UHGV virus genome: UHGV-0112704
Length of the DNA: 38,905 nucleotides
Reading direction: 5' to 3' (one strand)
Source: a virus
The position numbers and the translations under genes are program-made. Shown in pieces: positions 1-33,260 of this stretch. The number at the start of each line of letters is the position of its first letter. The first letter of the stretch is position 1. The notes below the pieces were generated by a model that had not been told where the DNA came from, searched no databases, and was given only the letters and a program-made list of their open reading frames with translations.

Positions 1-449
1 GAAGGCCACGGAACAGGGACACCAACAGGTAATGCAGAGCCTTCTCCCAAACCAAGGTTTGCGAGACCGTTTTTTGACGTTAATACAGGAGTCCATTTTG
101 CTGATGGCGGCTGGCTACCAATATTTGCATTTTGTAAGGACTGATAAGATTCACCGTTATGTGTGCAGATCGAACCGATATGATATTCCTGTTCTGCATG
201 CCACTCTGGAACCCCCATTTGGTGCTGATACGCAATGAACTGACTCATTGCATACATTGCCGCATTGAAGTCCTCAAGCGAGGGGTGTTCGGAAGCGCCA
301 ACAATGCCCCATCCGCGAAGGAAAGATGCCGTAATTTGCGAGGTCAGGTCATCCGCCTGATTTGTTCCACCAAACACGGTTCTTTCCATTCCCTGTGCAT
401 CAGAGGCAAAAGCCCGAACATCTCCCTGATATCGTACAATCTTAGACAT
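1..449 (-). CDS. putative tail fibre protein, 5' (N-terminal) portion; gene continues beyond window start
   Basis: ATG at 449-447 overlaps the stop of the upstream gene (ATGTCTAA). I hand-checked that this frame has no stop codon down to position 3. Sits where the fibre gene follows the gp48-like gene in a Mu-like baseplate block. Not in the ORF track because it is truncated. Confidence 0.45.
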   Translation of the reverse strand, partial: MSKIVRYQGDVRAFASDAQGMERTVFGGTNQADDLTSQITASFLRGWGIVGASEHPSLEDFNAAMYAMSQFIAYQHQMGVPEWHAEQEYHIGSICTHNGESYQSLQNANIGSQPPSAKWTPVLTSKNGLANLGLGEGSALPVGVPVPWP

Positions 450-1164
450 GGATTTTCCTCGAAAAAAAACCGCCCTGGTAGGCGGTATTAAACTTGCTGG
501 CGAATCCTCTGGCCGAAGGGTTTCGCGAGAAACCGAATGTCAGACCAGGAGTCACCTGATAAAAATAATCGTATCGAACGCCCGCAGGTTTCGGCAGCAG
601 GCCAAGCTTCACAATCAGGCGTAACTCTTCAACTGATACCCGCGGCGAAACGTTCAAAGCAAGCGTCATGTCTTTTCTGTCGGTCACGTAAGCTTCGCCG
701 TTGAAAGCCGTCTGTATAACATCCTGCAGGCTGACCCGATCGTCTGACGCTATCGTTGCACCTGCGGCGTTTCGCGCAATTTTGACCCGAAGGAACCTGC
801 GATACTCATTGTCAGCCAGTTGATAGTCACCATATGCCGGCGAAAACTTGCTGTAGAAAGGTGCGCCGACATACGCCGCATTAGATTTACTGTCGAAGCC
901 TGCGGTATTCAGATGTCCGTCAAACCCGAAAAATACACGGGCAATAACAGCAGGCACACTACGGTGAAGGCCGACTATCCGGCCAATGACATCAAGCCGG
1001 TATCCGGTAACCCGGTCGAGATCAAAGTTATCTGGGTTACGAATAAAATCGGCGATGATTTGCCAGTGCCTGAGCATGGCCTGTATCTCTGATCTTGCTT
1101 TTTTCTTTTCCCAATATTGTTTGATGAGCATTAGCGTGTAGCGGTTAATGATGTCGTCATTCAC
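442..1164 (-). CDS. baseplate/tail protein, DUF2313 (Mu gp48 / YmfQ-like)
   Basis: 240 aa ORF; N-terminal region recalled as DUF2313-like; position between the J-like baseplate gene and the fibre gene. Confidence 0.55.
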   Translation of the reverse strand: MNDDIINRYTLMLIKQYWEKKKARSEIQAMLRHWQIIADFIRNPDNFDLDRVTGYRLDVIGRIVGLHRSVPAVIARVFFGFDGHLNTAGFDSKSNAAYVGAPFYSKFSPAYGDYQLADNEYRRFLRVKIARNAAGATIASDDRVSLQDVIQTAFNGEAYVTDRKDMTLALNVSPRVSVEELRLIVKLGLLPKPAGVRYDYFYQVTPGLTFGFSRNPSARGFASKFNTAYQGGFFSRKIHV

Positions 1165-2342
1165 TGGACCACCTCGTTAACGTCTATATTTTCCACACTC
1201 AACGTGAACTTTCCCTGAAAGCCTGGCGATAACTCAGCATCGGTGTAATCTGCCCCATTACTGCTAATTTGCAGATTGGTCAGCACAAAATTTACCCGTC
1301 CTACCCCATACCCATTCTCATAAAATTCATTGGCATCCACAGACTCACCAATATGCATGGTGCGTGATGCAAGAGATTTTTTGAGAGTATCGATATCTAT
1401 CGGTTCGCTTTGAATCTTCCGGCGGGCATTAAGCCTGATATGAAGCGGCTTATAGATGGGCCGATCAAACTGAAGTTCATGGGCTATCAGAAATGAAGTG
1501 CCGTCAGGCCGAATCAGGGTCTCGGTAAAACGTCCGGTTATGCTGCCTTTCGTTCCCGTTCCACCGCCTTTCTGTTTAACCATCACCTCCACAATTTCTG
1601 AAATCGCTCCCCCCTCAACGACCAGCCATATTGAATTGGCCGGGATACCCGTCGTCGGATTATCAATTTTTGTGTCGTTCTCTCCGATATTCAGATCAAT
1701 TACACCTGTCAGTTGAGCAACTTTAGCGAAAACCGCCCCAGTGCTACCTGTTGCCGGGTTCTCAAGCGACCGGTTCCGGCGTTGCCTGAATTCTTCAGGC
1801 GTTTCCTCATCCCGACCGACCACAACCGCGGAATCAGAGATAATGCTCACAATCCCTGGTTCTGGTGTGAGTTGAGTGAAGGTGTCGTTCACAAGCCCAG
1901 TAACTTTCCCAAAGTTTTGAGCAAAAAAGGTGGCTGTTGTGACGCCCGCCGGAACGGTCACGTCCTGTCGGATAGCCCAGACCTGATTTGCCTGGTCCCG
2001 TATCTTGTACCCGCTATAGAGAAGCACCGGCCTGTCTGTTGTGACTTTAAGGTCACGCTGAGACCGGGAGCCGGGGCGAAGGAAAAGCCCGTGAAGTTTG
2101 GCGATAATCTGCTGCATATCACCAGTATTAAAATCGGGGTCCATTTGGGAATAAAGCCATTGCAGCGCGGCTTCAATATCTGCCCGAGCCTGAGCTTCGA
2201 TTGCCACGCGTTGACCGTCGGGAGATTCCTGGTCTAAATCGATATCCTGACCATAAATTCCCTTATATCCGTCGCTCAGTTCCTGAAATAACTCCCGGAG
2301 AGTGCTTGTCTCAAGGCCGTTGTCGCTAAACTGTAGTGCCAT
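1161..2342 (-). CDS. baseplate J-like protein (Mu gp47-like)
   Basis: 393 aa ORF, 4 bp overlap with the next gene; size and position typical of baseplate J in Mu-like tail modules. Confidence 0.5.
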   Translation of the reverse strand: MALQFSDNGLETSTLRELFQELSDGYKGIYGQDIDLDQESPDGQRVAIEAQARADIEAALQWLYSQMDPDFNTGDMQQIIAKLHGLFLRPGSRSQRDLKVTTDRPVLLYSGYKIRDQANQVWAIRQDVTVPAGVTTATFFAQNFGKVTGLVNDTFTQLTPEPGIVSIISDSAVVVGRDEETPEEFRQRRNRSLENPATGSTGAVFAKVAQLTGVIDLNIGENDTKIDNPTTGIPANSIWLVVEGGAISEIVEVMVKQKGGGTGTKGSITGRFTETLIRPDGTSFLIAHELQFDRPIYKPLHIRLNARRKIQSEPIDIDTLKKSLASRTMHIGESVDANEFYENGYGVGRVNFVLTNLQISSNGADYTDAELSPGFQGKFTLSVENIDVNEVVQ

Positions 2343-2706
2343 TCTTCAACGCTCCGTTGACCGGGAAGGTGATCGTCTGCTGGTCATAGACGGTCTCAAT
2401 GCTGAGTTCGATTTTTTGTGACCGGGTGGCCTTATTGACCTCCATCGCCAGAGCGGTAATGCGCATAACCCCATCCGTCGCCAGCGTCACGCGCTCTATC
2501 TCCCGCAGAATCTCCTGCTCGGTGTTTTTCTCTGATAACAGGTAAAGCCAGTCGATGTTGTCATCCATGTTGAGAGGATTATCGTTTTTGAACGAGCGGA
2601 TCCGGCATTTGGCTTTCTGCGCGATAGCAGCACCGCCAGTTATATAGTTTGCCTTCCCGCGCCCAAATCCCCAGTCGTCATTTTTATCAAGTGCTGAAAC
2701 AATCAT
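2326..2706 (-). CDS. baseplate protein (Mu gp46 / GPW-like)
   Basis: 126 aa ORF coupled between the spike-like and J-like genes. Confidence 0.45.
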   Translation of the reverse strand: MIVSALDKNDDWGFGRGKANYITGGAAIAQKAKCRIRSFKNDNPLNMDDNIDWLYLLSEKNTEQEILREIERVTLATDGVMRITALAMEVNKATRSQKIELSIETVYDQQTITFPVNGALKNGTTV

Positions 2707-3320
2707 GAGATCTCCGTGACAATACCGTTGGTAACTGTGATTGTTTTCCCGTCATCGCTTCGAAATGAACCAGACACCCCAGACTTACCGCCTGTCTTTA
2801 CCTGGGAATATTGAAGTACATTCAGAACATCGCATTCTTCCAGAGTCGTCTTACCATCTTTCTGGGTAATATTTCCTGTGAGGTTTAAATCACCCTCGTG
2901 GTCAGAATCCCCCTTCATCATCCTGTTCTTCTTAGGGATATTGATCGCGGTAGCCTGTGGGTTAACCCCACACAGAGCGAAGCCATCTGAATAATCGTGC
3001 ATACGCATTTCAAGTGGTGAAACAAAGTCGCTACCCGCATACCAAGCGTCATAACAACGCTCAGAGATAAGGACGAGGCAATAGTCACCAGCCGCAATTG
3101 GTTCGGCGATATAACTATCACCGCCTTGCAAAATTACCGGGGGGACTTCAATGAACTCTGGGAGTTGCTTGCTGCTCCCTTTCACAACCCGATTGATAAC
3201 GGGGACGCAACTGATTGTTTTGTCATTTACAGACGTTATTTTTGCGACAACAATGGTGTGAACATCGGCCAGAGCAAATTCAACACCCAGGCCGATAGTG
3301 TCGTGAAGTTCTTCGATCAT
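2703..3320 (-). CDS. baseplate assembly protein V / central spike (Mu gp45-like)
   Basis: 205 aa ORF; position and size typical of gpV-type spike proteins. Confidence 0.5.
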   Translation of the reverse strand: MIEELHDTIGLGVEFALADVHTIVVAKITSVNDKTISCVPVINRVVKGSSKQLPEFIEVPPVILQGGDSYIAEPIAAGDYCLVLISERCYDAWYAGSDFVSPLEMRMHDYSDGFALCGVNPQATAINIPKKNRMMKGDSDHEGDLNLTGNITQKDGKTTLEECDVLNVLQYSQVKTGGKSGVSGSFRSDDGKTITVTNGIVTEIS

Positions 3321-3435
3321 AAATTAAGCCCATAAAAAACCGCCAGAGTGGGTTCAATGGATGGCTAGATAAATACTCATACTAATCGCCGTAGAGCGAA
3401 CCTGCGCCAGCGTTTAATACTAAGGAGAGTCACTC

Positions 3436-3969
3436 ATGGGATTCAAATTCAGACAGCGCATCAAAATTGCACCAGGCATTCATATAAACATAGGTAAAAC
3501 AGGCATTACTAGCGCATCAATTGGTAAGGCTGGTGCTACCCTGAACGTTGGTAAAAAAGGGGTAAAGGCAACCGCAGGCATTCCCGGTACCGGTTTGTCT
3601 TACACGAGTGGAAACTTGCTCGCGGGTCAAAAGAGCTCCACCGGTAAACACGCTGAGAACGTAGAGGAACAAGCACCTGAGCGGCTTGGTTTCTTTTCGG
3701 ACTCAACGTTGTTAGAGGATGGTCAGGAAGATATTCAACCACCTCGCCCATTGGTCATGGTATTAACCCATAAGCAATTTAGAAAACTATCAACCGAGGA
3801 GAAAACGGCATTTAAAAATGCAGGTGGTAAGGTGAAGTTTTCAATAGGCGAGAAAATTTTTATTCTCACAGTCATTATTTTTGCTCTTGGCTGGCTTTCA
3901 GATCGTCACCCACCAGAAAAAACCAATTCCAGCGTAACGCAAGAAGTAAAATCTTCAGTTAACAACTGA
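3436..3969 (+). CDS. DUF4236-family protein with C-terminal transmembrane segment (moron)
   Basis: 177 aa; N-terminus MGFKFRQRIKIAPGIHINIGKTGITSASIGKAGATLNVGKKG...GTGLSYTSG matches my recollection of the DUF4236 signature; C-terminal hydrophobic stretch IFILTVIIFALGWL; AAGGAG Shine-Dalgarno before the ATG; opposite orientation to the surrounding tail genes. Confidence 0.55.
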   Translation: MGFKFRQRIKIAPGIHINIGKTGITSASIGKAGATLNVGKKGVKATAGIPGTGLSYTSGNLLAGQKSSTGKHAENVEEQAPERLGFFSDSTLLEDGQEDIQPPRPLVMVLTHKQFRKLSTEEKTAFKNAGGKVKFSIGEKIFILTVIIFALGWLSDRHPPEKTNSSVTQEVKSSVNN

Positions 3970-4902
3970 GTAATTTCCGGCAGGCTGGCATACCACCTTC
4001 TGATACCAGGCTGCCCCGTTGTTCTGCCCGCTGGTTTCAATCTGGTATATCTTATAAACCCCGTTTAACGCGGGGTTCGTCACGCTTTCAACAGCGCAAA
4101 GCCCACCGATCACCAGCATAGGATTCAGTTTCGTATCGAATACGATCTGCCCTTTCGAGGATTTGGCTAAGGTACTCGAGTCAGTATCTTTTTTGCCTGC
4201 CGGATCCGTATCAGGCTCATTGGTTGGCATCTTGGCTTTCTTCCCCCCGTCATCCTGTGCGCTAATCTTCGTTGCCTGAGGCGTATTTAGCAGACCGCTA
4301 CGCGCATTCACGACTGGAATGTTACCCGATGTAACCTCATTAGCCTTGAGGATGTGGACGCGCTCATCTTTGATGAAAAATGACTCGTCGGACGCAAGGG
4401 TATCGGTAAGAATTTTACTGGAGCTACCTACCAGAACCTTCGGCCTGATGAGTGCTTGTTGCTTCGTCACAGAGCCTTTTTTCGTGTTTGGCATATCCTG
4501 CAAGACAGAATCGACGACCTGATCTTTCCCGCGTACCGTGCGCGATGTGAAAGCGTTGATATAGTCGTGGCCACCGTCTTCACATTCCAGGCTGACGATG
4601 TGGATCGCCCCCTCACGCTTTACTGCTCCGCTTTTAACCGAACCCTGAAATACCTGGCGCAGCTTGCCGTCGTAACCAACCTCGAGTCGAACGGGGATAT
4701 ACTTCTCTTCATCTTCGGACTTGAGCAATTGCAGACGCGTGGAAGGCTTTAGCCCGTTGATGGACACACTCAGCTTGCCGAGTGACTTCTTGTCCACAGT
4801 TTCCAGCGCCTTGAATGACACGGTGATCGGTGGCTCGATAATCACTGCTTGATTGCCGATCCCCACCGTCAGCCGATAATCACGGTAAAAAGTATCCATC
4901 AC
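3955..4902 (-). CDS. tail/baseplate hub protein (Mu gp44-like position)
   Basis: 315 aa ORF in the baseplate block; assignment by position only. Confidence 0.35.
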   Translation of the reverse strand: MMDTFYRDYRLTVGIGNQAVIIEPPITVSFKALETVDKKSLGKLSVSINGLKPSTRLQLLKSEDEEKYIPVRLEVGYDGKLRQVFQGSVKSGAVKREGAIHIVSLECEDGGHDYINAFTSRTVRGKDQVVDSVLQDMPNTKKGSVTKQQALIRPKVLVGSSSKILTDTLASDESFFIKDERVHILKANEVTSGNIPVVNARSGLLNTPQATKISAQDDGGKKAKMPTNEPDTDPAGKKDTDSSTLAKSSKGQIVFDTKLNPMLVIGGLCAVESVTNPALNGVYKIYQIETSGQNNGAAWYQKVVCQPAGNYSVVN

Positions 4903-5234
4903 GGCACGTCTCCCCCGCGAATATCAATCATCTCTTCCGGCGTGACCAGATACATTTCGATGCGACCACTGGCGAAGTCGTCAGCCCGATATGGGTCAAT
5001 GCCGGAATTGTCAGCGCAAAGTAACACAACGTCGAAAGGCCAGTTCTTGTGCCGAAAATGTAGCGTCCCGAGGGACAGCTTCACGCCGTCGATGTAATCA
5101 CCGTTGTACTCCACGCGCATTTTCCACATTTCAACCGTAGGCAGATAACGAATAGTGACCACAGCCTCACCACGGTCAAAAATCAGAACATGCCGCTGGA
5201 TAGGTTCGTCAGTGATGTTGGTTATCGGATCCAT
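4899..5234 (-). CDS. tail protein
   Basis: 111 aa ORF, 4 bp overlap with the downstream gene, inside the tail module. Confidence 0.35.
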   Translation of the reverse strand: MDPITNITDEPIQRHVLIFDRGEAVVTIRYLPTVEMWKMRVEYNGDYIDGVKLSLGTLHFRHKNWPFDVVLLCADNSGIDPYRADDFASGRIEMYLVTPEEMIDIRGGDVP

Positions 5235-5246
5235 ACGTTGCTCTCA

Positions 5247-6053
5247 TTAGAATAAAGATTTCGCCGCCCCTTTTAACGAGGTCATGACTGATTTTGACTG
5301 GCTGGTCCCGTTACTTTTTTTAGAATTATCAGCGGGCGTCTGCGCCCCCTTATTAGCAACGCCCGCCGTTTTTGATTTAGCAGCTGCCGAGGGGGATTTG
5401 AAGTGCTGCTCAATCGGTGCGGTAGTCAGTTGCGTGAAGGTGATTTTTGTAAAACTGGCTTCAAACTTAGTTTCCATCGTTTGATTGTCGGTACTGATGG
5501 TCAGGCCGCTTAACGCCATATTTTCATGGGTGCGATAATCCACCTCCACGGAAATAAGCTGCTTGCCGTAGTACACCCCCTCAATGAAGTCGAGAAATTG
5601 CTCGCGTATACCTTTAGCGCCACCAGTAGACGGGTTGCCCACCAGCCCAAACAGGTCGGCTCCTTTATCAGCCAGGCGTTTTGCCTTTAAGATGGCCTGC
5701 TCTGCGCGGTCGGCAATCTCATTCATTTTTTGCAACTGCTGCTGCGTCTTTGCGGGGATGTACTCCAGCACCTCACCATACTTCGAATAATCTGGCATCA
5801 GGCTAAAAGAAGAGTTTGGTTTCGCATCGACAAAAATATCGGCAACAACACCGCTGATTTTTATCGTCAGCGGGCCATTGATAATGTCGTCTGACGCGTT
5901 ACTGCCATCCTCCAGCACGTCTACAGGAACCTGAGACGGGTATTCAGTAGCATCGCTCACTCGGGCAAACATTGAGAACCCGCCGATCCCTACCTTTTTA
6001 ACAGTATCTTTGCCAGAAGATTGCGCCTGCATGAGGCCGTCTAGAATCCCCAT
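5247..6053 (-). CDS. tail protein (Mu gp43 / DNA-circularisation-protein position)
   Basis: 268 aa ORF immediately downstream of the tape measure gene with a 1 nt overlap. Confidence 0.35.
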   Translation of the reverse strand: MGILDGLMQAQSSGKDTVKKVGIGGFSMFARVSDATEYPSQVPVDVLEDGSNASDDIINGPLTIKISGVVADIFVDAKPNSSFSLMPDYSKYGEVLEYIPAKTQQQLQKMNEIADRAEQAILKAKRLADKGADLFGLVGNPSTGGAKGIREQFLDFIEGVYYGKQLISVEVDYRTHENMALSGLTISTDNQTMETKFEASFTKITFTQLTTAPIEQHFKSPSAAAKSKTAGVANKGAQTPADNSKKSNGTSQSKSVMTSLKGAAKSLF

Positions 6054-7915
6054 TACCGACCTCCTCTGCCACTCAACCGGTTGGCATCCTTCATGTTTTG
6101 TTGCAGGCTATCTGCCGCAGTATTCCCGGCGACAACCGGATCGGATGTGTTGATGTGAATCGTGTTCTGCTGGCTGACGCTTGAATTGCTTGTCACGCCA
6201 CCACCACCGAGTCCCACCGCAGCATTCATGCCGTAAGGAATACCACCAGGACTCATGCCGCCGTTACCGCCGCCGGTTACTCCCTGCTGCTGTTCATCCT
6301 CACCGACCCCGAAGAATGACTTTGTCGCATTCCAGGCATTTGAAGCAGCGTTGCTGATAATATTGCTGATGTATTCCCCCAGCCCAGCAAAGATGTTTTT
6401 CGCCCAGTCAATAAAAGCCGTGAATGGTTTTTTCATCAGTTCGACGCCGTTATCGAAGATTTTTACCACATCCCCCCATGCACCTTCAAAATCGCCAGCG
6501 ACTAACTTCCATAGTGCTGAGAACATCAGCTTCGTGTTTTCGATGGCAGTAGTGAATACATCAACGACAAACGCGCCGGCATCGCCAAACACGTATTTAA
6601 TCGCATCACCAACGACACCAAATGCACCAGTGATAAACGCTATAAGAGAATCAAAGATATTCTGCGCATCCTTCATCGCACCCTGAAAATCACCCGTAAA
6701 CGCACCTGTGATGAGATGCCACACCATCCTGAACATGGAGGCAATCGCATCAGCAAGCGGTTTAAACACGCCAATAGCGTAGTTTATGAAAGCCATGAGC
6801 GACGCTTTCGCCTCTTTCAGTGCGGGAACAATATCTATTCCCCAGTTATCTTTGAAGAAATCAGCAATAACGCTTTGGCCACCTTCCATAGCCGTCAGCA
6901 AATCATCGATAACAAGAACGACAGCGATAATGGCGGCAGTGATCAGTACGACAGGAGAGAATATGGTTGCCAGCACCGCTCTAAGTCCTATAGCAGCAAT
7001 TTTCCAGGCTACAAATCCGGTGGTAATAAGACCAATAATCGGCAGGAAGCGACGGATCATACCCATAACGGAGAAGATAATTTCCCCAAGATGGGCCAGC
7101 CCGTTTTTGATGAGATCCTTATTAGCAATGAGAATGTCCGTAAACCCATCCACCAGGTCTTTCAGTACCGGCACAAATCCGACGGCAACCTGAAATTTGA
7201 TACCATCAAAGCCTTTCCCCAGCGTTGTCAGAGAATCGTTGTAGGCTGCAAACTGATCGGCCTGGTCTTGCGTGACAACACCAAGCGCCTCGGCCTTGTT
7301 CTGCAACGAAGATATTTCTTCGCCCGTCATGGATAGCAACTGCACCATGGAACGGTCGATACCCATCTTATCCAGAACAGAAAACTTCTCTGCCTGGCTC
7401 ATGCCGTGCAGTTTGTCGGCCAGTTCACGAAATATCACATCGGAGTTTTTTACCTGCCCGTTCATATCCTTGAACTGAAGGCCCAGCCTTTCCGCAACGT
7501 CTTTCGCCTCCCCCTCACCGGTGGAAACGAACTCCCCCACTCTTTTTGTCATCTCACCTAGCGAAGCCTGCAACGCATCAACACTTGAGCCATTTACAGA
7601 CGCCGCGTAACCCAGTGACTGAACGGTCTCGATCGCCACCCCCGTTTCCCGGGAGAACTGGACCAGCGGATCAATAGACTGCCTGACAGACGTCACCCAG
7701 CCAGCAACCCCCGCAGCCGAACCGGCGATAGCGGCTCCAAGCCCGGCAAGCAAACCAATAGATGCTTTCAGATTTGCATTGAAGGTTTCCTGCGGCGCCA
7801 GATTACCGATAAAACCGAATTTGGTAATAAGCTCGTTAACTATCGCCATTCCGCGCCTTCTCCATCTCGTAGTGTTGAATGTCTGCGCTGATATTCTCGA
7901 ACTCAAGCATGTCAA
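6053..7915 (-). CDS. tail tape measure protein
   Basis: 620 aa; long Ala/Gly-rich hydrophobic blocks in the middle, Gly-rich C-terminus (GVTGGGNGGMSPGGIPYGMNAAVGLGGGGV); follows the chaperone, tube and sheath genes. Confidence 0.7.
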   Translation of the reverse strand: MTCLSSRISAQTFNTTRWRRRGMAIVNELITKFGFIGNLAPQETFNANLKASIGLLAGLGAAIAGSAAGVAGWVTSVRQSIDPLVQFSRETGVAIETVQSLGYAASVNGSSVDALQASLGEMTKRVGEFVSTGEGEAKDVAERLGLQFKDMNGQVKNSDVIFRELADKLHGMSQAEKFSVLDKMGIDRSMVQLLSMTGEEISSLQNKAEALGVVTQDQADQFAAYNDSLTTLGKGFDGIKFQVAVGFVPVLKDLVDGFTDILIANKDLIKNGLAHLGEIIFSVMGMIRRFLPIIGLITTGFVAWKIAAIGLRAVLATIFSPVVLITAAIIAVVLVIDDLLTAMEGGQSVIADFFKDNWGIDIVPALKEAKASLMAFINYAIGVFKPLADAIASMFRMVWHLITGAFTGDFQGAMKDAQNIFDSLIAFITGAFGVVGDAIKYVFGDAGAFVVDVFTTAIENTKLMFSALWKLVAGDFEGAWGDVVKIFDNGVELMKKPFTAFIDWAKNIFAGLGEYISNIISNAASNAWNATKSFFGVGEDEQQQGVTGGGNGGMSPGGIPYGMNAAVGLGGGGVTSNSSVSQQNTIHINTSDPVVAGNTAADSLQQNMKDANRLSGRGGR

Positions 7916-16919: not shown

Positions 16920-18337
16920 TACATGATGTCCAGTGGGCTGAGTGTTTTTCTCTGATACAAATCGCGTAGTCCCTGTGTCATTGCATCGACAACGTCATCG
17001 TTCGCGCCGACAGGGAACGTGGTAATTTCCTCGACCGTCTCAGTGATCCACGGTGCGATGTCTTTATGGGGAAGGAAAACGTTACCTGCTTCCCATACAG
17101 CGGTGATCGCATGCGCCCGGGCGACTTTGCTGCCGTCCGGTTCAACGGGAACGAGTCCTGCTACGGTGCTTTTCAGTGAATCAATAACCGCCGGGCCGTT
17201 GGCTTTATCCTCCACCAGCTTGCGCAGGCCTTTGGGGTATTCGTCGGCCATGCGTTTAACGGCTTTGAGTGTTGCGGTAAAGCTCATGCGCGCGCGCACC
17301 TGGTGAAGCAGATAAGCATTGGCGCCTTTTTTCCCCCATACCTGCCCGACAACGTAGTCGGTGCCCTCGCTGTCTTTGAAGGTCATATCCCAGCTATGGA
17401 CGACAATATCGAAGTTGGTCGGCAAGTCTTTCGGGAGGTAATACTTGATCCACTCGTCTTTGAAGATTGAGCCGCCGGCCTGTTTTGGTGACTGCTGATA
17501 CATCGCAGACCAGAAGTAATCCCCGAGAATGGTTTTGGTTTCGAGCAGCTTTTCTTTCGGGTGCAGTTCAGGCACCAGCGCTTCACCCTGCTCGTTGATT
17601 GCAGGGAACGCCAGCACCTTAGCGCGCGGCGTGATTTCCACCACACGCCCGGATAAATCATCTGTCGCCCAGCGGGTCGCCATGATGATTTCGCCGCTGT
17701 TTTTCGACAGACGCGTTTTAAACGTGGAAACGTACCAGTTCCAGATAGATTTTTTGGTCGTCGGGCTGAGTGCTTCTTTGGCGTTTTTTATCGGGTCATC
17801 GATGATACCGAGATCGATTTTCTTACCTGTTAACGGGCCGCCTACGCCCGCACAGACATACGTTCCCTTATGGTTGGCTATACCGAATTCGTCAGTGTTA
17901 CGCTTTACGGCCACACCATCAGCCGGCTTATTTCCCAACCAGGCACCCGGAAATATGTTGCGGTATTCCGGCGTGGACATAATGCGCTGAACATCGGCGT
18001 TCATGTCCCCGGCAAGGTCAGCGGAGTACGACAAAGCGCCCACGCGCATTTCAGGATATTTTCCGAAGAAATACGCTGGCAGGTAACGCGAAACGATATC
18101 CGATTTACCATGCTGCGGCGGCGCACCGAGAATCAGTATCGGGCGCAGCCCGTTCATCATATCCAGCAGGAACTGATCCAGAGCGTCGCAGACCGTCTGA
18201 GAGAACTTGCTGGTGATGTATTCGGGATTAATGTACTGAATGAAGTCGTGGAGGCTTGCCCGCGCATTGCGTCGTTTGAGTAACTCGGCCGCTGCTTCCT
18301 GCTTACTTACCAGCGATAATTGCGGCGAGCTGCTCAT
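16919..18337 (-). CDS. terminase large subunit
   Basis: 472 aa; Walker A-like P-loop ILILGAPPQHGKSD; Walker B-like IDLGIIDDP; acidic nuclease-type C-terminal half. Confidence 0.8.
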   Translation of the reverse strand: MSSSPQLSLVSKQEAAAELLKRRNARASLHDFIQYINPEYITSKFSQTVCDALDQFLLDMMNGLRPILILGAPPQHGKSDIVSRYLPAYFFGKYPEMRVGALSYSADLAGDMNADVQRIMSTPEYRNIFPGAWLGNKPADGVAVKRNTDEFGIANHKGTYVCAGVGGPLTGKKIDLGIIDDPIKNAKEALSPTTKKSIWNWYVSTFKTRLSKNSGEIIMATRWATDDLSGRVVEITPRAKVLAFPAINEQGEALVPELHPKEKLLETKTILGDYFWSAMYQQSPKQAGGSIFKDEWIKYYLPKDLPTNFDIVVHSWDMTFKDSEGTDYVVGQVWGKKGANAYLLHQVRARMSFTATLKAVKRMADEYPKGLRKLVEDKANGPAVIDSLKSTVAGLVPVEPDGSKVARAHAITAVWEAGNVFLPHKDIAPWITETVEEITTFPVGANDDVVDAMTQGLRDLYQRKTLSPLDIM

Positions 18338-19301
18338 CAGTCAGATCCTCCGCGCTTACTGTGTGATTATGCTGTATGGGCTCACCATTCGGGCCGCTTA
18401 ACTCAGTTTTGGTTTTCAGCATGCCGAGGTGTTGTGCGACCATCTTCATAGCCTCATCCTGATTGCGGGTGATCATTTCAAGGCCAAATTTGCCCTCTTT
18501 AATCCCGGCAAAAAGGCGGCGTTCTGCGCCCTTCAAATCTCGTGTATCGTGGAAAACAGGACGGCTCAGACCAACGCCATTGCAGCGGGGGCAATCCGGG
18601 TTCGGGTCCAGTGTGCCGTCGTAGCCGTAGCCGCCCGTATCCTTAGGCTGCATGGCACCTTCCTTCCCCTTAACCTTTTCTTCTGCTTCCTCAAACTCAA
18701 CTGCATCGCGCCACTGGTAGTTAAAACCGAGTCCCCAGCAGTAACGGCAACAGCCGCGGTGATGTTCAGTAAGTTGCGTAGCGTCTGCCGTCGCAATGTC
18801 CCACCACCATTTCAACACTTCGTCCTGCGTTATCTTCACTCTTCGCGAGCGTTCGTCCAGCGCGTCGCGGATTGCCTGGCTGACCTTAGCATTTCTTAGC
18901 AGGCGCGAGGCGTTAACGTAAGCCGTATTTCCTTCACCTTTATAGCCAGCTCGCTTGTATGCAGCGGTCCTGTTCAGATCGAGAAGATACTCTTCGACAA
19001 ACCTGATCTGCATATCGTTAAGGCCGTAATTGCGCAGGTTGAAGGGTTGCGCACTTTCCTGTATATCGGTCTGCGCATCAGTTGAGGATTGCTCATACTG
19101 CGCAGTGGTAGGGGCTTGTTCAGTCTGCGCATTGCGCACTTTCTTCTGCGCATTTTTTTGCGCAGTTGGCTTTTTGATATAGCGCCGCGCAGATGTGTAA
19201 TTCAGCCCCCGCGCTTCACACCAGTCTTTGGGGGAAATACCGGATTTAGCATGCTCGGCGAGGAACTGGTGTTGCAGTGATCCCCAGTCCGGTTTTGCCA
19301 T
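18303..19301 (-). CDS. terminase small subunit
   Basis: 332 aa ORF directly upstream of and overlapping the large terminase gene; N-terminal DNA-binding-like region. Confidence 0.6.
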   Translation of the reverse strand: MAKPDWGSLQHQFLAEHAKSGISPKDWCEARGLNYTSARRYIKKPTAQKNAQKKVRNAQTEQAPTTAQYEQSSTDAQTDIQESAQPFNLRNYGLNDMQIRFVEEYLLDLNRTAAYKRAGYKGEGNTAYVNASRLLRNAKVSQAIRDALDERSRRVKITQDEVLKWWWDIATADATQLTEHHRGCCRYCWGLGFNYQWRDAVEFEEAEEKVKGKEGAMQPKDTGGYGYDGTLDPNPDCPRCNGVGLSRPVFHDTRDLKGAERRLFAGIKEGKFGLEMITRNQDEAMKMVAQHLGMLKTKTELSGPNGEPIQHNHTVSAEDLTDEQLAAIIAGK

Positions 19302-19388: not shown

Positions 19389-19949
19389 ATGAAATACTCA
19401 CAGCAAGAAAAACTACAGATCATGATGCTCAGTGATATTCACCGAGCATTAGAAATTGAAAACTCATTTGATCCTGACCTCATTGACGAAGCAGTGAGCA
19501 CGGATAACTACTGGGCTTTATCCTGGGAATACCCAGGCCTTCAAGATGAAGAAGAGGAGACCCCCTGGGAAGTCCAGCTTTTCGTTGATACCTATGATAT
19601 GTATGACATTCTCCAATACACATACGAACGATTCAGTGCGGAAGACAAAGCAGAGGTTGCCAAATCTATTCGTAATTTCGATGAGAAATTATCACTCACA
19701 TTCCCCGGATTTGACGGTAACAACGAATCAAAGTTTCTTTTGATTGGTAGTTTATTGAAACGAATGGGACGGTTTAGCGGCAAAGACGATCTCACCCGGA
19801 ACTCTCACATGCCCTCTGTTGCAATTTACCAACGTATGCTTGAAGTTTTCCTTCCTGCCAGAGCTAAGAATTGGGTTCACAATGTGGGCATTACTAAACA
19901 TGATTTTATCGATACACTCAACGCGAGAGTGCATCCAGAAAATCGTTAA
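19389..19949 (+). CDS. YfbU-family (UPF0304) protein
   Basis: 186 aa; C-terminal block YQRMLEVFLPARAKNWVHNVGITKHDFIDTLNA resembles E. coli YfbU as I recall it. AGGA before the ATG. Opposite strand to the flanking terminase and lysis genes. Confidence 0.6.
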   Translation: MKYSQQEKLQIMMLSDIHRALEIENSFDPDLIDEAVSTDNYWALSWEYPGLQDEEEETPWEVQLFVDTYDMYDILQYTYERFSAEDKAEVAKSIRNFDEKLSLTFPGFDGNNESKFLLIGSLLKRMGRFSGKDDLTRNSHMPSVAIYQRMLEVFLPARAKNWVHNVGITKHDFIDTLNARVHPENR

Positions 19950-19954
19950 ACGTT

Positions 19955-19976
19955 AATGCCCGCAAATGCGGGCATT
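19955..19976. terminator. perfect hairpin between convergent YfbU and Rz genes
   Basis: AATGCCCGC-AAAT-GCGGGCATT, 9 bp stem. Flanking U-tracts are weak, so terminator function is uncertain. Confidence 0.35.
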
Positions 19977-20502
19977 ATTCATCATGGCGCCTTATTACTT
20001 TGTCGTAGGTGCGCTCACAGGTATTTCCGGCGACATAACGCTCATCAGCCTCTTTTGCGAATTTTCCCGCCAGATCGTCAGCTTCGCTGAGCAACTGGGC
20101 GAGCAATATTCCGGCCTCGGCTTTTGCCTGGCTTGTTGCTGCAATTGCGGAAATTCTGCCTGTTTCACTTGTTGCGAGCTGCCGTTGTATTTCGGCGAGC
20201 TGCTGTTGCAACCCACTGCGAGCACGCTTAGCAGCGTTAGCATCAGCCTGTACTTTTGCCAGTTCTTCATCGGCTTTCTCTCGTTCTTCATCTACGGCCC
20301 GCTGGCGGCGCTGCTCTTCTGCTCTTTCGGTTACTTCACGCTGCAATGTAGTGGTCGCATCAGTAAGGTCACGTTGTGCCCACTGCAATTTCCAGGATGA
20401 GTCCGCCTCCTGATACCCGCGTGAATAACACCAGTACGCGACCGCGCATAACAAAAAAGCCACCAGCAGTATTTCTGCCAGCGGCTTCCAGTAAGCCCTC
20501 AC
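19975..20502 (-). CDS. Rz-like i-spanin
   Basis: Predicted N-terminal membrane anchor (LAEILLVAFLLCAVAYWCY) followed by a charged coiled-coil periplasmic domain. The track ORF begins at 20565 inside the endolysin gene; a GTG at 20502 overlaps the endolysin stop as GTGA and is the likelier start. Confidence 0.65.
   Translation of the reverse strand: MRAYWKPLAEILLVAFLLCAVAYWCYSRGYQEADSSWKLQWAQRDLTDATTTLQREVTERAEEQRRQRAVDEEREKADEELAKVQADANAAKRARSGLQQQLAEIQRQLATSETGRISAIAATSQAKAEAGILLAQLLSEADDLAGKFAKEADERYVAGNTCERTYDKVIRRHDE
19995..20270 (-). CDS. Rz1-like o-spanin lipoprotein, embedded in Rz in the +1 frame
   Basis: Open frame wholly inside Rz; from Met at 20270 it reads MKNWQKYRLMLTLLSVLAVGC: basic n-region, hydrophobic core and a lipobox-like AVGC; proline-containing mature part. 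Confidence 0.5.
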   Translation of the reverse strand: MKNWQKYRLMLTLLSVLAVGCNSSSPKYNGSSQQVKQAEFPQLQQQARQKPRPEYCSPSCSAKLTIWRENSQKRLMSVMSPEIPVSAPTTK

Positions 20503-21576: not shown

Positions 21577-22368
21577 TCAATTACCCAATGGCTTATGTAG
21601 TTTAAATGGGTTAAGTGATTCTTCATTTTTCAGGCTTATCTTTAAATTCACAGCAATCAGTGAATGATCGTCAGTTGGTCCAGCGCGCTGTATCCGCTTA
21701 AAAAGATTGGTTGAAAAGTTAGTAGCATTCTTCAATGTATTGGGAGAAAAACGCGGGCGGCGTTCCCAGAAGTGATGGGCTCCATCGGACATCAGAAAAA
21801 GAGAAACAACACCGTCATGGTCCATCAAATCTGACAGGGGTAACGAAATATGCTGAAATTTTATTGGCAGGACTTTAGAAATAGCTGCAGTAAGCATGTT
21901 CTTTCCTGGTAAGTCTTCCAATTCCCTTTTCGTATATAACCCATCGTCGAGCAACTCTTGATGCTGTGAGTGATCTTTCGTTAGTAGTTTTAATTTGTTA
22001 TCAATTTTTACATACACCCGAGTATCGCCTACATGGATTACATTAAGTAACTCACCATGTACAACACAGTAGGATAATGTTGTTGCGGCCTTGCGCTTCT
22101 CTGAATCGAACTGAGATAGTTCAGATATTTTGTCTTTTGCACCACTAAGTATCGCATCAGGATCAGAACTGGCTTTCAGTTTATGAGTTGCGACATAGTC
22201 TACTGCAGCTTGCGCTGCTTCTTTAGCACCAGCATAAGACCCGACACCATCAGCAATAGCAAAAATGAAGCCATCATCACATTGTTGCGGGAGTAGTAAC
22301 GCATCTTGGTTTTCACGACCATGATCTTTGGGGCATGAAAATGCACCACAGCTCAACAACTCAATCAT
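21577..22368 (-). CDS. PP2C-family (PPM) Ser/Thr protein phosphatase
   Basis: 263 aa; PPM motifs RENQDA, FAIADGVGSYAGA, HVGDTRVY, LMSDGAHH, TDDHS; start overlaps the kinase stop (ATGA); about 39% GC. Confidence 0.8.
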   Translation of the reverse strand: MIELLSCGAFSCPKDHGRENQDALLLPQQCDDGFIFAIADGVGSYAGAKEAAQAAVDYVATHKLKASSDPDAILSGAKDKISELSQFDSEKRKAATTLSYCVVHGELLNVIHVGDTRVYVKIDNKLKLLTKDHSQHQELLDDGLYTKRELEDLPGKNMLTAAISKVLPIKFQHISLPLSDLMDHDGVVSLFLMSDGAHHFWERRPRFSPNTLKNATNFSTNLFKRIQRAGPTDDHSLIAVNLKISLKNEESLNPFKLHKPLGN

Positions 22369-24187: not shown

Positions 24188-25048
24188 CTATCGCGTGACT
24201 TTGTTCAACATCTGGTTTGCGTACTCTTCCTGCTTGATGCACTCACCTACCAGACTTTCGAAAAAATCCTTGTAAGACCTGCGCCACGTGGTTTCAGGTA
24301 TATCCATCACCGTTACGCAGATGTATTTACGGACGCTATCAGGTAGCAATCTGGCATAACCACGCCCATTGCAGCGCGTACAGGTTTTATATGCAGGAAC
24401 GCCGCGCTGTAGAATAGTTTTCTCTTTGTCTAATACTGTTCCTTTGCCATTGCACTGGCATGCGTTGGTCAGAGCACCCTTCCCTTTGCATTTGTGGCAA
24501 AGCACCTTAACCATCTCTCTTTTTTCGCTAAGGTGTGGCTGTCCGATATGCTTCATCGTCATTACTTCAGCTTCGACAAACTTATTTCCATGGCAGCAGT
24601 CGCACGTTCTGGTGCTGGCCGCACTCCGGGAGTAATCAGCAAAGGCGAAAGTTGCGAGAACTTGCATTACCTTTGGCTTAACATCACTCTCAAGCTTGCG
24701 TAAGGCAGCAACCTTATCGCAGTGCTCAATTGCATATTTTGTCAGCAAATCAATCGCTCGCTCGCGATCGTAATCACTGATATCCATCTTTCCTAGGAAT
24801 GCACTGAACCCGAGAGCAGCACGGCTCTGTGTCATTCCGATCGCCGCCATAATGTCAGTGCCGGTTAATGAGTCAGATGCTGTCGCGCGTGGAGCGTCGC
24901 TAATCATCGTTGACTTCGCGAAGTGGTATTTCACTGTGTTTTCAAGGTTCATAGCGCTTCTCCAGCATAAGTTTTCACGTAATTCTTCAGTATCCGGTAG
25001 TCCGTTAGCACAGAGCCGGGAAAGTGGTATAAGCGCAATCGTTGCCAA
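24188..25048 (-). CDS. late-gene antiterminator Q-like protein with Cys-rich zinc-finger repeats
   Basis: 286 aa ORF immediately upstream of the promoter/terminator leader and the lysis genes; four CxxC-type clusters (CDCCHGNK, CHKCKGKG, CQCNGKG, CTRCNGRG); directly downstream of NinG as in lambdoid phages. Confidence 0.55.
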   Translation of the reverse strand: MATIALIPLSRLCANGLPDTEELRENLCWRSAMNLENTVKYHFAKSTMISDAPRATASDSLTGTDIMAAIGMTQSRAALGFSAFLGKMDISDYDRERAIDLLTKYAIEHCDKVAALRKLESDVKPKVMQVLATFAFADYSRSAASTRTCDCCHGNKFVEAEVMTMKHIGQPHLSEKREMVKVLCHKCKGKGALTNACQCNGKGTVLDKEKTILQRGVPAYKTCTRCNGRGYARLLPDSVRKYICVTVMDIPETTWRRSYKDFFESLVGECIKQEEYANQMLNKVTR

Positions 25049-32549: not shown

Positions 32550-32768
32550 CTACTTTGGTAATCCGTCAGTGGGATTTGGATAGAGATCAGGGCGCAGCTC
32601 GTGGGGGGTTACGCCTGTCATTTTGAAAATCGGGAAGATATAGCTTGGCGGGACGATCCCTTGGTCACGATTCTTCCAATGACTTACAGACATACTCGTC
32701 ACACCAAGCGCGATGCTGAGCTTTCTGGCAGAGCCAGCGGCTTTAATTGCTTTATCGAGTGCGGACAT
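32550..32768 (-). CDS. Cro-like HTH regulator (YdaS family)
   Basis: 72 aa; HTH LSIALGVTSMSVSHWKN; divergent from the repressor gene across an operator-containing intergenic region. Confidence 0.7.
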   Translation of the reverse strand: MSALDKAIKAAGSARKLSIALGVTSMSVSHWKNRDQGIVPPSYIFPIFKMTGVTPHELRPDLYPNPTDGLPK

Positions 32769-32870
32769 GTGCTTCTCCTGCTTATTGATAGCAGAAGTAA
32801 ACCACAGATTTATACTTCATGCAAACTTTGGATTTATTGCGTGCATAAACCAAATATTTACAATGACCAT
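32769..32870. promoter_or_regulatory. divergent promoter/operator region between the Cro-like and repressor genes
   Basis: 15 bp sites TAAACCACAGATTTA (32798-32812) and TAAACCAAATATTTA (32846-32860), plus inverted repeat TTTGGATTTAT/ATAAACCAAA (32827-32854); the same site type recurs at 34274-34288. Confidence 0.45.
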
Positions 32871-33260
32871 ATGAGAAAAGAAGAACCCAACCTCGTTCTG
32901 GTGGAGCGCCTTACTGAGATCACTGATCGCGGCGTTACCAAAGCAGACATGGCAAGAATAGCTGGAGTCACCCCTCAGGCCGTAAACGGCTGGTTCAAAA
33001 AAGGCGTGATTAGTAAGAAATCGGCACTGGCCATAGCCGACGCTGTTGGTATTTCTGTCGCCTGGCTACTCGGTGAAGACGTTGGGGAGAAAGACGGTCT
33101 CAAACCGGACGAACAGCGTTTGCTCGAGCTCTACCGCCAGTTACCGGAAGAAGAGCAGCAGAACATGCTCCGCATTTTTGCGCTTCGCCTGAAAGAGTTA
33201 GATGAGCTGTACGAGAAGTACATGAAGGGTCGGATTCGATCGCAAGGTGAGCAAACCTAA
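32871..33260 (+). CDS. cI-like immunity repressor (XRE-type HTH, no S24 peptidase domain)
   Basis: 129 aa from the ATG at 32871; HTH ADMARIAGVTPQAVNGWFKKG; helical C-terminus. The track ORF 32601-33260 carries an implausible upstream extension. Confidence 0.7.
   Translation: MRKEEPNLVLVERLTEITDRGVTKADMARIAGVTPQAVNGWFKKGVISKKSALAIADAVGISVAWLLGEDVGEKDGLKPDEQRLLELYRQLPEEEQQNMLRIFALRLKELDELYEKYMKGRIRSQGEQT

Follow-up and report, generated by a model that had tools for sequence, protein, structure and literature searches.

The UHGV virus genome UHGV-0112704, whose whole stretch of 38,905 nt is referred to here as the window, carries a block of minus-strand tail genes into which a single plus-strand gene is set, encoding a protein of 177 amino acids (aa) with an N-terminal DUF4236 domain (Table 1). 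The tail genes are tightly packed or overlapping, and the DUF4236 open reading frame (ORF) occupies a gap of its own of 634 nt among them, between the gene for the membrane-puncturing spike and that for the baseplate hub. A ribosome-binding site (AAGGAG, 3423..3428, plus strand) is located 7 nt 5' of its ATG, and at its other end the ORF converges on the hub gene with an overlap of 15 nt, the hub stop being the complement of 3955-3957 and the DUF4236 stop lying at 3967-3969. An initial annotation of this DNA had described an antisense gene of 177 aa within the baseplate genes, with its own ribosome-binding site and a 15-nt overlap with the stop of the convergent gene, and the ORF list, the sequence and the coordinates of the two stops bear out this description.

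Long antisense ORFs are frequent in the window, for example one of 174 aa (1713..2237) within the baseplate J gene. The reading of 3436..3969 as a spurious ORF was nevertheless rejected, on the grounds of non-synonymous differences per site (pN) far below the synonymous ones (pS) and of a strong match to the DUF4236 family. The Pfam profile DUF4236 (PF14020), which the initial annotation had suspected in the N-terminus, matches residues 3-57 over profile positions 1-55 of 55 (E=4.9e-19, 69 bits against a gathering cut-off of 27); the protein also matches phrog_18347 (E=2e-78), and in identical E. coli prophages it is labelled by RefSeq as a DUF4236 domain-containing protein (WP_000505900.1). 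Full-length orthologues, with 53-91% identity, are present in Kluyvera, Salmonella, Pantoea, Yersinia and metagenomes, and an AGGAG/AGCAG motif is retained 5' of the orthologous genes (alignment A5). In the codon comparison with these orthologues, pN is lowest in the DUF4236 domain (0.10-0.15, with pS saturated at 0.7-0.9), intermediate in the C-terminal part (0.23-0.37) and highest in the linker between them (0.34-0.53), where it nears pS. The ORF is thus more than a chance occurrence, because it has its own gap, a ribosome-binding site, a strong family match and a pN far below pS: 3436..3969 is a real gene under purifying selection.

Variable content of the hub-spike slot

All orthologues whose context was looked up are located in the same antisense slot between spike and hub. 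As these contexts were found via the DUF4236 protein itself and constitute a biased set, retrieval via the hub protein was added (71 viral contigs and two genomes), and the 68 usable loci obtained in this way were classified according to the content between hub stop and spike start. The DUF4236 gene is absent or replaced in 40 of these 68 loci (Table 1). Among relatives whose hub is 74-100% and whose spike is 69-100% identical to those of the window, the slot holds at least six unrelated cassettes or none, and spikes at least 95% identical to that of the window are accompanied by four different cargos. The slot, which the initial annotation had thought might be empty or variable in related prophages, is therefore variable, and in one of the 68 loci empty. 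In the more distant Yersinia phage fEV-1 (hub 46% identical), hub and spike overlap and there is no slot.

The alternative cargos share the hub-spike position with the DUF4236 gene and are unrelated to it in sequence, three of the types being encoded on the sense strand. All of them are envelope-targeted, by a signal peptide, a lipobox or transmembrane (TM) helices. One, the secreted tRNA_anti-like protein, matches phrog_8545, labelled superinfection exclusion (Sie)-like; this is a PHROG family label and not a functional test, and it is the only such label among the alternative cargos.

The commonest alternative or companion cargo is the 120-aa protein, found alone in L025, L054, L066 and 20 further loci. 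It has a signal peptide (MKKL...AHAGP) and a conserved C-terminus (...YVATxCLDMK), and constitutes an unnamed family without a match in Pfam or PHROG. Together with the DUF4236 gene it forms a two-gene antisense unit in L006, L010, L028-L038, L052 and L062.

An apparently empty slot in three E. coli genomes that match only as far as the spike start (E. coli 1506, H39 and H40) was discarded, these being prophage remnants truncated by the insertion sequence IS1. In strain 1506, the one of the three that was inspected (L002, 9043-9941), IS1 interrupts the slot's gene for the 120-aa secreted protein, and the hub through the recombination genes are deleted.

The DUF4236 gene also differs from its neighbours in composition and rate of change. 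Its G+C content is 43.8%, and 39% at third codon positions (GC3), compared with 46.8-51.8% and a GC3 of 47-64% in the flanking genes. In comparisons between relatives that give 81-93% identity for the hub and 67-83% for the spike, the protein reaches 53-61%, and its non-synonymous divergence (dN) is three to seven times that of the hub. From the variability of the slot, the atypical G+C content and the fast divergence, the gene is dispensable for the tail and exchanged horizontally; it represents a "moron" cassette in the sense of Juhala/Hendrix and Cumby et al. (PMC3594210), and is almost certainly accessory cargo and not a structural gene. Variable presence at the same position and a differing base composition, both typical of morons in that sense, were observed; an own terminator was not. 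The suggestion of the initial annotation that cargo had been inserted into a structural operon is in this way supported, and neither of the outcomes that it had set against itself, the lack of a DUF4236 match and conservation of the ORF as a structural gene, was encountered.

The genes flanking the slot match the families Dit_like, Pam3_gp18, E217_GP41, Gp138_N, Sheath_initiator, Baseplate_J, DUF2612 and DUF3383/E217_gp31 sheath. Judged from these families the tail is of the E217/Pam3 contractile type, and not the Mu-like module that had been assumed initially; the element is a lambdoid temperate prophage of E. coli, which besides an antiterminator Q and a CI-like repressor encodes a replication protein O and RecE/RecT. 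The region is 99.5-100% identical in five complete E. coli chromosomes, strains TUM9803 and NADC1036 carrying it in identical form and the prophage of TUM9803 adjoining tonB/yciI, and the cassette was found in 5 of 5,426 complete E. coli genomes. Among 50,697 phage records, megablast found no match to the region, the element being known solely as a prophage.

Two further regions of the prophage deserve mention. At 19389-20400, adjoining the small terminase gene (18303..19301, minus strand), two plus-strand genes oppose the late operon in direction and code for a 186-aa YfbU-domain protein (E=5.5e-12) and a 144-aa protein without Pfam match; this looks like a second cargo slot of the late region. 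Between Q and the packaging genes, a gene for a PP2C-type protein phosphatase (PF13672, E=5.7e-15) is present on the minus strand (21577-22368).

Table 1. Features of the window, cargo of the hub-spike slot among 68 loci retrieved via the hub protein, and DUF4236 genes in other phages
Feature	Position	Strand	Basis or remark
DUF4236 cargo coding sequence (CDS)	3436..3969	+	ATG start, 177 aa, stop included; ORF list, Pfam, PHROG, selection, RefSeq
DUF4236 domain	3442..3606, residues 3-57	+	Pfam; six-strand antiparallel beta meander (AlphaFold2), presumably cytoplasmic
Acidic linker, predicted disordered	3622..3759, residues 63-108	+	predicted local distance difference test (pLDDT) 40-53; 9 D/E versus 4 K/R
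Basic juxtamembrane module LTxKQFRKLSxEEKxAFKxAGGKVKFS	3760..3849, residues 109-138	+	invariant columns in alignment A1; predicted helices 112-128
Predicted TM helix, single, C-terminal tail anchor	3844..3906, residues ~137-157	+	hydropathy and AlphaFold2 helix 137-157
Polar C-terminal tail	3907..3966, residues 158-177	+	presumably periplasmic
Convergent 3' overlap, DUF4236 gene and hub	3955..3969	.	sequence; without terminator
Divergent intergenic region, spike start to DUF4236 start	3321..3435	.	115 nt; without consensus sigma-70 promoter or significant RNA structure
Sigma-70-like TTTACA-17-AACAAT, candidate only	3226..3254	+	inside spike CDS; 9/12 match; no excess over shuffles
DUF2612 wedge	442..1164	-	ORF list and family matches
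Baseplate J	1161..2342	-	ORF list and family matches
Sheath initiator	2326..2706	-	ORF list and family matches
Gp138_N-type membrane-puncturing spike, right slot border	2703..3320	-	Pfam PF18352, E=1.3e-17; RefSeq name
E217 gp41-like baseplate hub, left slot border	3955..4902	-	PF22759, E=2.7e-9; phrog_196, E=3e-51
Pam3 gp18-like plug	4899..5234	-	ORF list and family matches
Dit-like	5247..6053	-	ORF list and family matches
Tape measure	6053..7915	-	ORF list and family matches
Antiterminator Q	24188..25048	-	lambdoid marker
CI-like helix-turn-helix repressor	32601..33260	+	lambdoid marker
DUF4236 gene	slot, 28/68 loci	antisense	13/28 also with 120-aa secreted-protein gene
Juxtamembrane/TM core and periplasmic domain, without DUF4236	slot, 3/68	antisense	family assignment
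120-aa signal-peptide protein alone	slot, 23/68	antisense	slot survey
2-TM bPH_2 "membrane-flanked domain" protein	slot, 7/68	sense	PF03703; phrog_3707, "moron" category
DUF7424 lipoprotein	slot, 5/68	sense	family assignment
Secreted 245-aa tRNA_anti-like protein, L048	slot, 1/68	sense	Pfam E=3e-12; phrog_8545 "superinfection exclusion Sie-like", E=8e-14
Empty (35-nt gap), L075	slot, 1/68		slot survey
Klebsiella phages GZ7 (L091) and RCIP0034 (L088), temperate; 105 aa	just 5' of Gp138_N spike, after hub	antisense	C-terminal TM
Pasteurella phage Pmp2 (L089 3974-4303)	after hub, then TM2-domain membrane protein	sense	no TM
C. difficile phage phiCD146 (L092 4001-4642)	between Phage_Gp15 chaperone and tape measure	sense	no TM
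Acinetobacter phage Ab11510-phi (L090 4001-4324)	between AntA antirepressor gene and tape measure	sense	C-terminal TM
Acinetobacter prophage L095 7001-7390	two genes 5' of 941-aa gene	sense	C-terminal hydrophobic segment

Protein anatomy and transcription signals

The protein encoded by 3436..3969 is composed of distinct segments. Its DUF4236 domain is contained in a glycine-rich and strongly basic stretch (residues 1-62, with nine K/R and no D/E), for which AlphaFold2 places the strands within residues 7-59 with a pLDDT of 72-86. The model was computed from an alignment of 66 sequences, and its mean pLDDT of 68 and predicted template modelling score (pTM) of 0.31 mean that local features only are to be trusted. 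The linker of residues 63-108 is poorly conserved, variable in length and gapped in alignment A1. The juxtamembrane module that follows is confined to this prophage lineage, where it is present in some relatives without DUF4236. A word-indexed search for homologues of the last 78 residues gave no match, and as an exhaustive phmmer search with the C-terminal module returned only six matches among 1.84 billion representatives, this module is lineage-specific and uninformative.

A single hydrophobic segment is present (best 19-residue Kyte-Doolittle average 1.87, within residues 133-155), and the C-terminal hydrophobic helix noticed in the initial annotation was recovered by both hydropathy and AlphaFold2. 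The flank on its N-terminal side carries three K/R and no acidic residues, that on its C-terminal side has a net charge of zero, and no signal peptide was found in the protein. In the orthologues P0009-P0011 and P0019 a cysteine-containing domain of about 90 aa takes the place of the polar tail (alignment A1), and in other family members an SH3_3 domain follows the TM helix. Because of the charge asymmetry, the lack of a signal peptide and these SH3_3 or two-cysteine domains beyond the helix in relatives, the protein is predicted to be a tail-anchored inner-membrane protein with its N-terminus inside and its C-terminus outside, about 20 residues being periplasmic.

The slots of L055, L073 and L079 contain antisense genes for proteins of 147-157 aa that have the same juxtamembrane motif and TM helix, together with a two-cysteine periplasmic domain of some 90 aa. 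Because these proteins keep the motif and the helix without DUF4236, the family is modular, with DUF4236 as an optional N-terminal module. The window's protein resembles most PF14020 members found in having the domain at the extreme N-terminus and a hydrophobic helix after it; its particular combination of linker, juxtamembrane module and TM helix is limited to a small enterobacterial prophage lineage. A hydrophobic 17-residue segment downstream of DUF4236 was present in 74 of 89 family matches, a homologue set biased to proteins that share words with the query.

The DUF4236 gene lies antisense to the minus-strand late operon, which is read from Q, and an own promoter would therefore be required for its expression. 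No consensus sigma-70 promoter was found in the 115-nt intergenic region 3321..3435, and the corresponding regions of the orthologues, 52-130 nt long, could not be aligned beyond close relatives. The sigma-70-like candidate at 3226..3254, within the spike gene, retains TTTACA in 48 of 51 distinct relatives and AACAAT in 41 (GACAAT in nine). It was rejected as promoter evidence, being equally conserved where the slot is empty or holds cargo on the other strand; it may represent either a promoter fixed in the backbone or only the effect of coding constraint on the spike. A simple scan of 3000-4500, by which weak or Rho-dependent terminators would be missed, detected no intrinsic-terminator-like site, and a hairpin with T-run 5' of the spike start, as well as the structures at the 3' end, did not differ from shuffled sequences.

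DUF4236 genes in an immI-like arrangement and in other phages

A prophage of Yersinia enterocolitica (L003), whose hub and DUF4236 protein are 84% and 58% identical to those of the window, provides a more elaborate version of the slot. Within the slot of L003/L004 (4481-6504), a gene for an 82-aa Mnt-like ribbon-helix-helix protein immediately precedes the DUF4236 gene in the same orientation, and divergent from this unit are a 48-aa Arc-like gene and a P22_AR_N antirepressor (ant) gene, so that the order in L003 is hub, DUF4236 <- mnt-like, arc-like -> ant, spike. Overlapping divergent promoter-like sites are present between the two units (5623-5669), amid repeated AGGTATGTA motifs, and in L003 the mnt-like gene is followed by DUF4236 without an intervening terminator. 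The order in phage P22 is gene 16, sieA <- orf59a <- mnt, arc -> ant, gene 9; by gene order and family, the Yersinia unit reproduces the P22 immI layout, DUF4236 standing where P22 has sieA. Prophage expression is documented for both mnt and sieA of P22 (PMC10883804). By analogy, the orientation of the DUF4236 gene and its mnt-linked arrangement in Yersinia suggest, as the initial annotation had supposed for such insertions, that it may be expressed in the lysogen.

DUF4236 occurs widely in bacteria, joined to a variety of C-terminal partners, and it was also encountered in phages unrelated to this lineage (Table 1). About nine such contexts were inspected, which constitute a lead and not a statistic. 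In Acinetobacter prophage L095, the 941-aa gene downstream of the DUF4236 gene lacks a Pfam match; its position and size make it the probable tape measure. Twice, a DUF4236 gene lies near an antirepressor gene. Matches in tblastn were also obtained in Klebsiella phages of 137-149 kb and Brevundimonas phages of 313-357 kb, the gene being located elsewhere in those genomes. In Aliivibrio fischeri (L094, 7001-7504), a gene for a DUF4236-TM-SH3_3 protein belongs to a cassette-like array that also comprises CcdAB, Abi_alpha and a toxin-antitoxin pair of the TacA/GNAT type.

A sequence search of the PDB with the DUF4236 family profile gave no match, and the literature on DUF4236/PF14020 yielded an incidental mention in a Salmonella prophage remnant, the remaining matches being Plasmodium gene identifiers.

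Candidate functions at the inner membrane

We tentatively propose, giving it somewhat less than an even chance, that the DUF4236 protein acts in superinfection exclusion at the inner membrane and protects the lysogen. Transcription of the gene would be independent of its neighbours and would most probably take place in the repressed prophage. Its product would present the basic, glycine-rich DUF4236 beta-sheet on a flexible acidic linker at the cytoplasmic face, anchored by the juxtamembrane module and the TM helix, and the tethered protein would interfere with the channel opened, or the DNA end brought in, by the tail tip (spike, hub and tape measure) of an arriving phage. It would then be a functional analogue of P22 SieA and HK97 gp15, both of which are encoded beside injection-apparatus genes. 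The proposal is suggested by the antisense, accessory nature of the cargo, by the envelope proteins that replace it, one of them with a Sie-like label, and by the sieA-like arrangement in Yersinia; it is further suggested by the fact that both characterised inner-membrane Sie morons adjoin genes of the apparatus they block, P22 sieA adjoining the ejection-protein gene 16 and the HK97 gp15 gene lying between the tail chaperone and the tape measure.

The comparison with these two proteins shows both likeness and difference. Like SieA, the protein is a small predicted inner-membrane protein encoded by a prophage gene antisense to the late operon and amid injection-apparatus genes. SieA has three predicted TM segments, and its types are highly divergent from one another (PMC10883804). 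Unlike SieA, whose function has been demonstrated, the DUF4236 protein has one C-terminal TM helix and would be cytoplasmic in its bulk, and its function is proposed by analogy. HK97 gp15 is a single-pass inner-membrane Sie moron encoded in the tail operon (PMC3594210). With gp15 the DUF4236 gene shares its nature as an extra tail-operon gene beside that of a protein crossing the inner membrane, a G+C content deviating from its neighbours and, if the prediction holds, a small single-pass inner-membrane product; however, gp15 has 62 aa and an N-terminal TM segment, and is encoded on the sense strand with an annotated terminator, whereas the DUF4236 gene is antisense and no terminator was found for it. 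The DUF4236 genes of phiCD146 and of the Acinetobacter prophages have the same chaperone-to-tape-measure position as HK97 gp15.

Several results weigh against exclusion. BLASTP of the DUF4236 protein against SieA gave E=0.034 over 21 residues, which is no similarity, and no alignment was obtained with HK97 gp15. The protein had no match in scans with PADLOC and NCBIfam, and its largely cytoplasmic orientation would be atypical for known Sie proteins.

This orientation would fit a different membrane effector carried as cargo, either an abortive infection (Abi) or toxin-like protein, in which DUF4236 would sense phage or stress and the TM helix would perturb the membrane, or a host-fitness factor of lysogenic conversion. 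We regard such an effector as unlikely. The same evidence for cargo applies to it, a mostly cytoplasmic mass suits intracellular sensing over periplasmic blocking, and both the Aliivibrio gene among toxin-antitoxin and Abi_alpha cassettes and the bacterial spread of DUF4236 with many C-terminal partners are in its favour. But PADLOC gave no match for this kind of system either, no partner gene is consistently linked, and the recurrence of DUF4236 beside tape-measure, hub and spike genes in several lineages indicates a link to injection or the tail and not a generic membrane role.

That same recurrence in divergent phages would fit a lytic-cycle role tied to the tail tip, as a helper of baseplate or spike assembly or as a late block on injection by progeny virions or superinfecting sister phages into the infected cell. 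The genes of Pmp2, phiCD146 and the Acinetobacter phages, being on the sense strand, suggest co-expression with the tail, and the slot is constant within the enterobacterial lineage. Such a role is nevertheless improbable: the gene is missing, or replaced by unrelated cargo, in close relatives whose hub and spike are almost the same, and it is thus not needed for tail assembly; a gene that runs against the late operon is beyond the reach of Q-dependent transcription; and in some loci the slot is occupied by DUF4236-less versions of the protein.

Regulation at the RNA level, in which antisense transcription into the hub would damp leaky late genes of the lysogen, the protein being of secondary importance, is very improbable, for although the 15-nt convergent overlap and the lack of a detected terminator would let a plus-strand transcript enter the hub in antisense, the constraint on the protein is strong, several of the other cargos are encoded on the sense strand, and orthologues do not preserve the overlap (8 nt in L005 and 15 nt in L008, but a 24-nt gap in the Yersinia prophage L003, and a second gene interposed between DUF4236 gene and hub in Kluyvera and other loci).

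Superinfection exclusion, the function we tentatively prefer, can be extended to the family as a whole, although we consider this extension doubtful. DUF4236 would then define a widespread class of cytoplasm-facing, tail-anchored proteins that block or control the delivery of phage DNA, encoded time and again beside the genes of the DNA conduit (tape measure, hub and spike) in temperate phages of Proteobacteria and Firmicutes, and the hub-spike junction would be a dedicated exchange site for envelope-defence cassettes.

DUF4236 is a large family without function, structure or practically any literature, and the locus described here provides it with a testable context. Should exclusion fail as an explanation, what is left is a clearly documented, if ordinary, tail-operon moron. 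If it holds, DUF4236 would represent a new and common phage-exclusion family, unusual in that the protein is nearly all cytoplasmic, and the hub-spike junction would be worth searching for more defence cargo.

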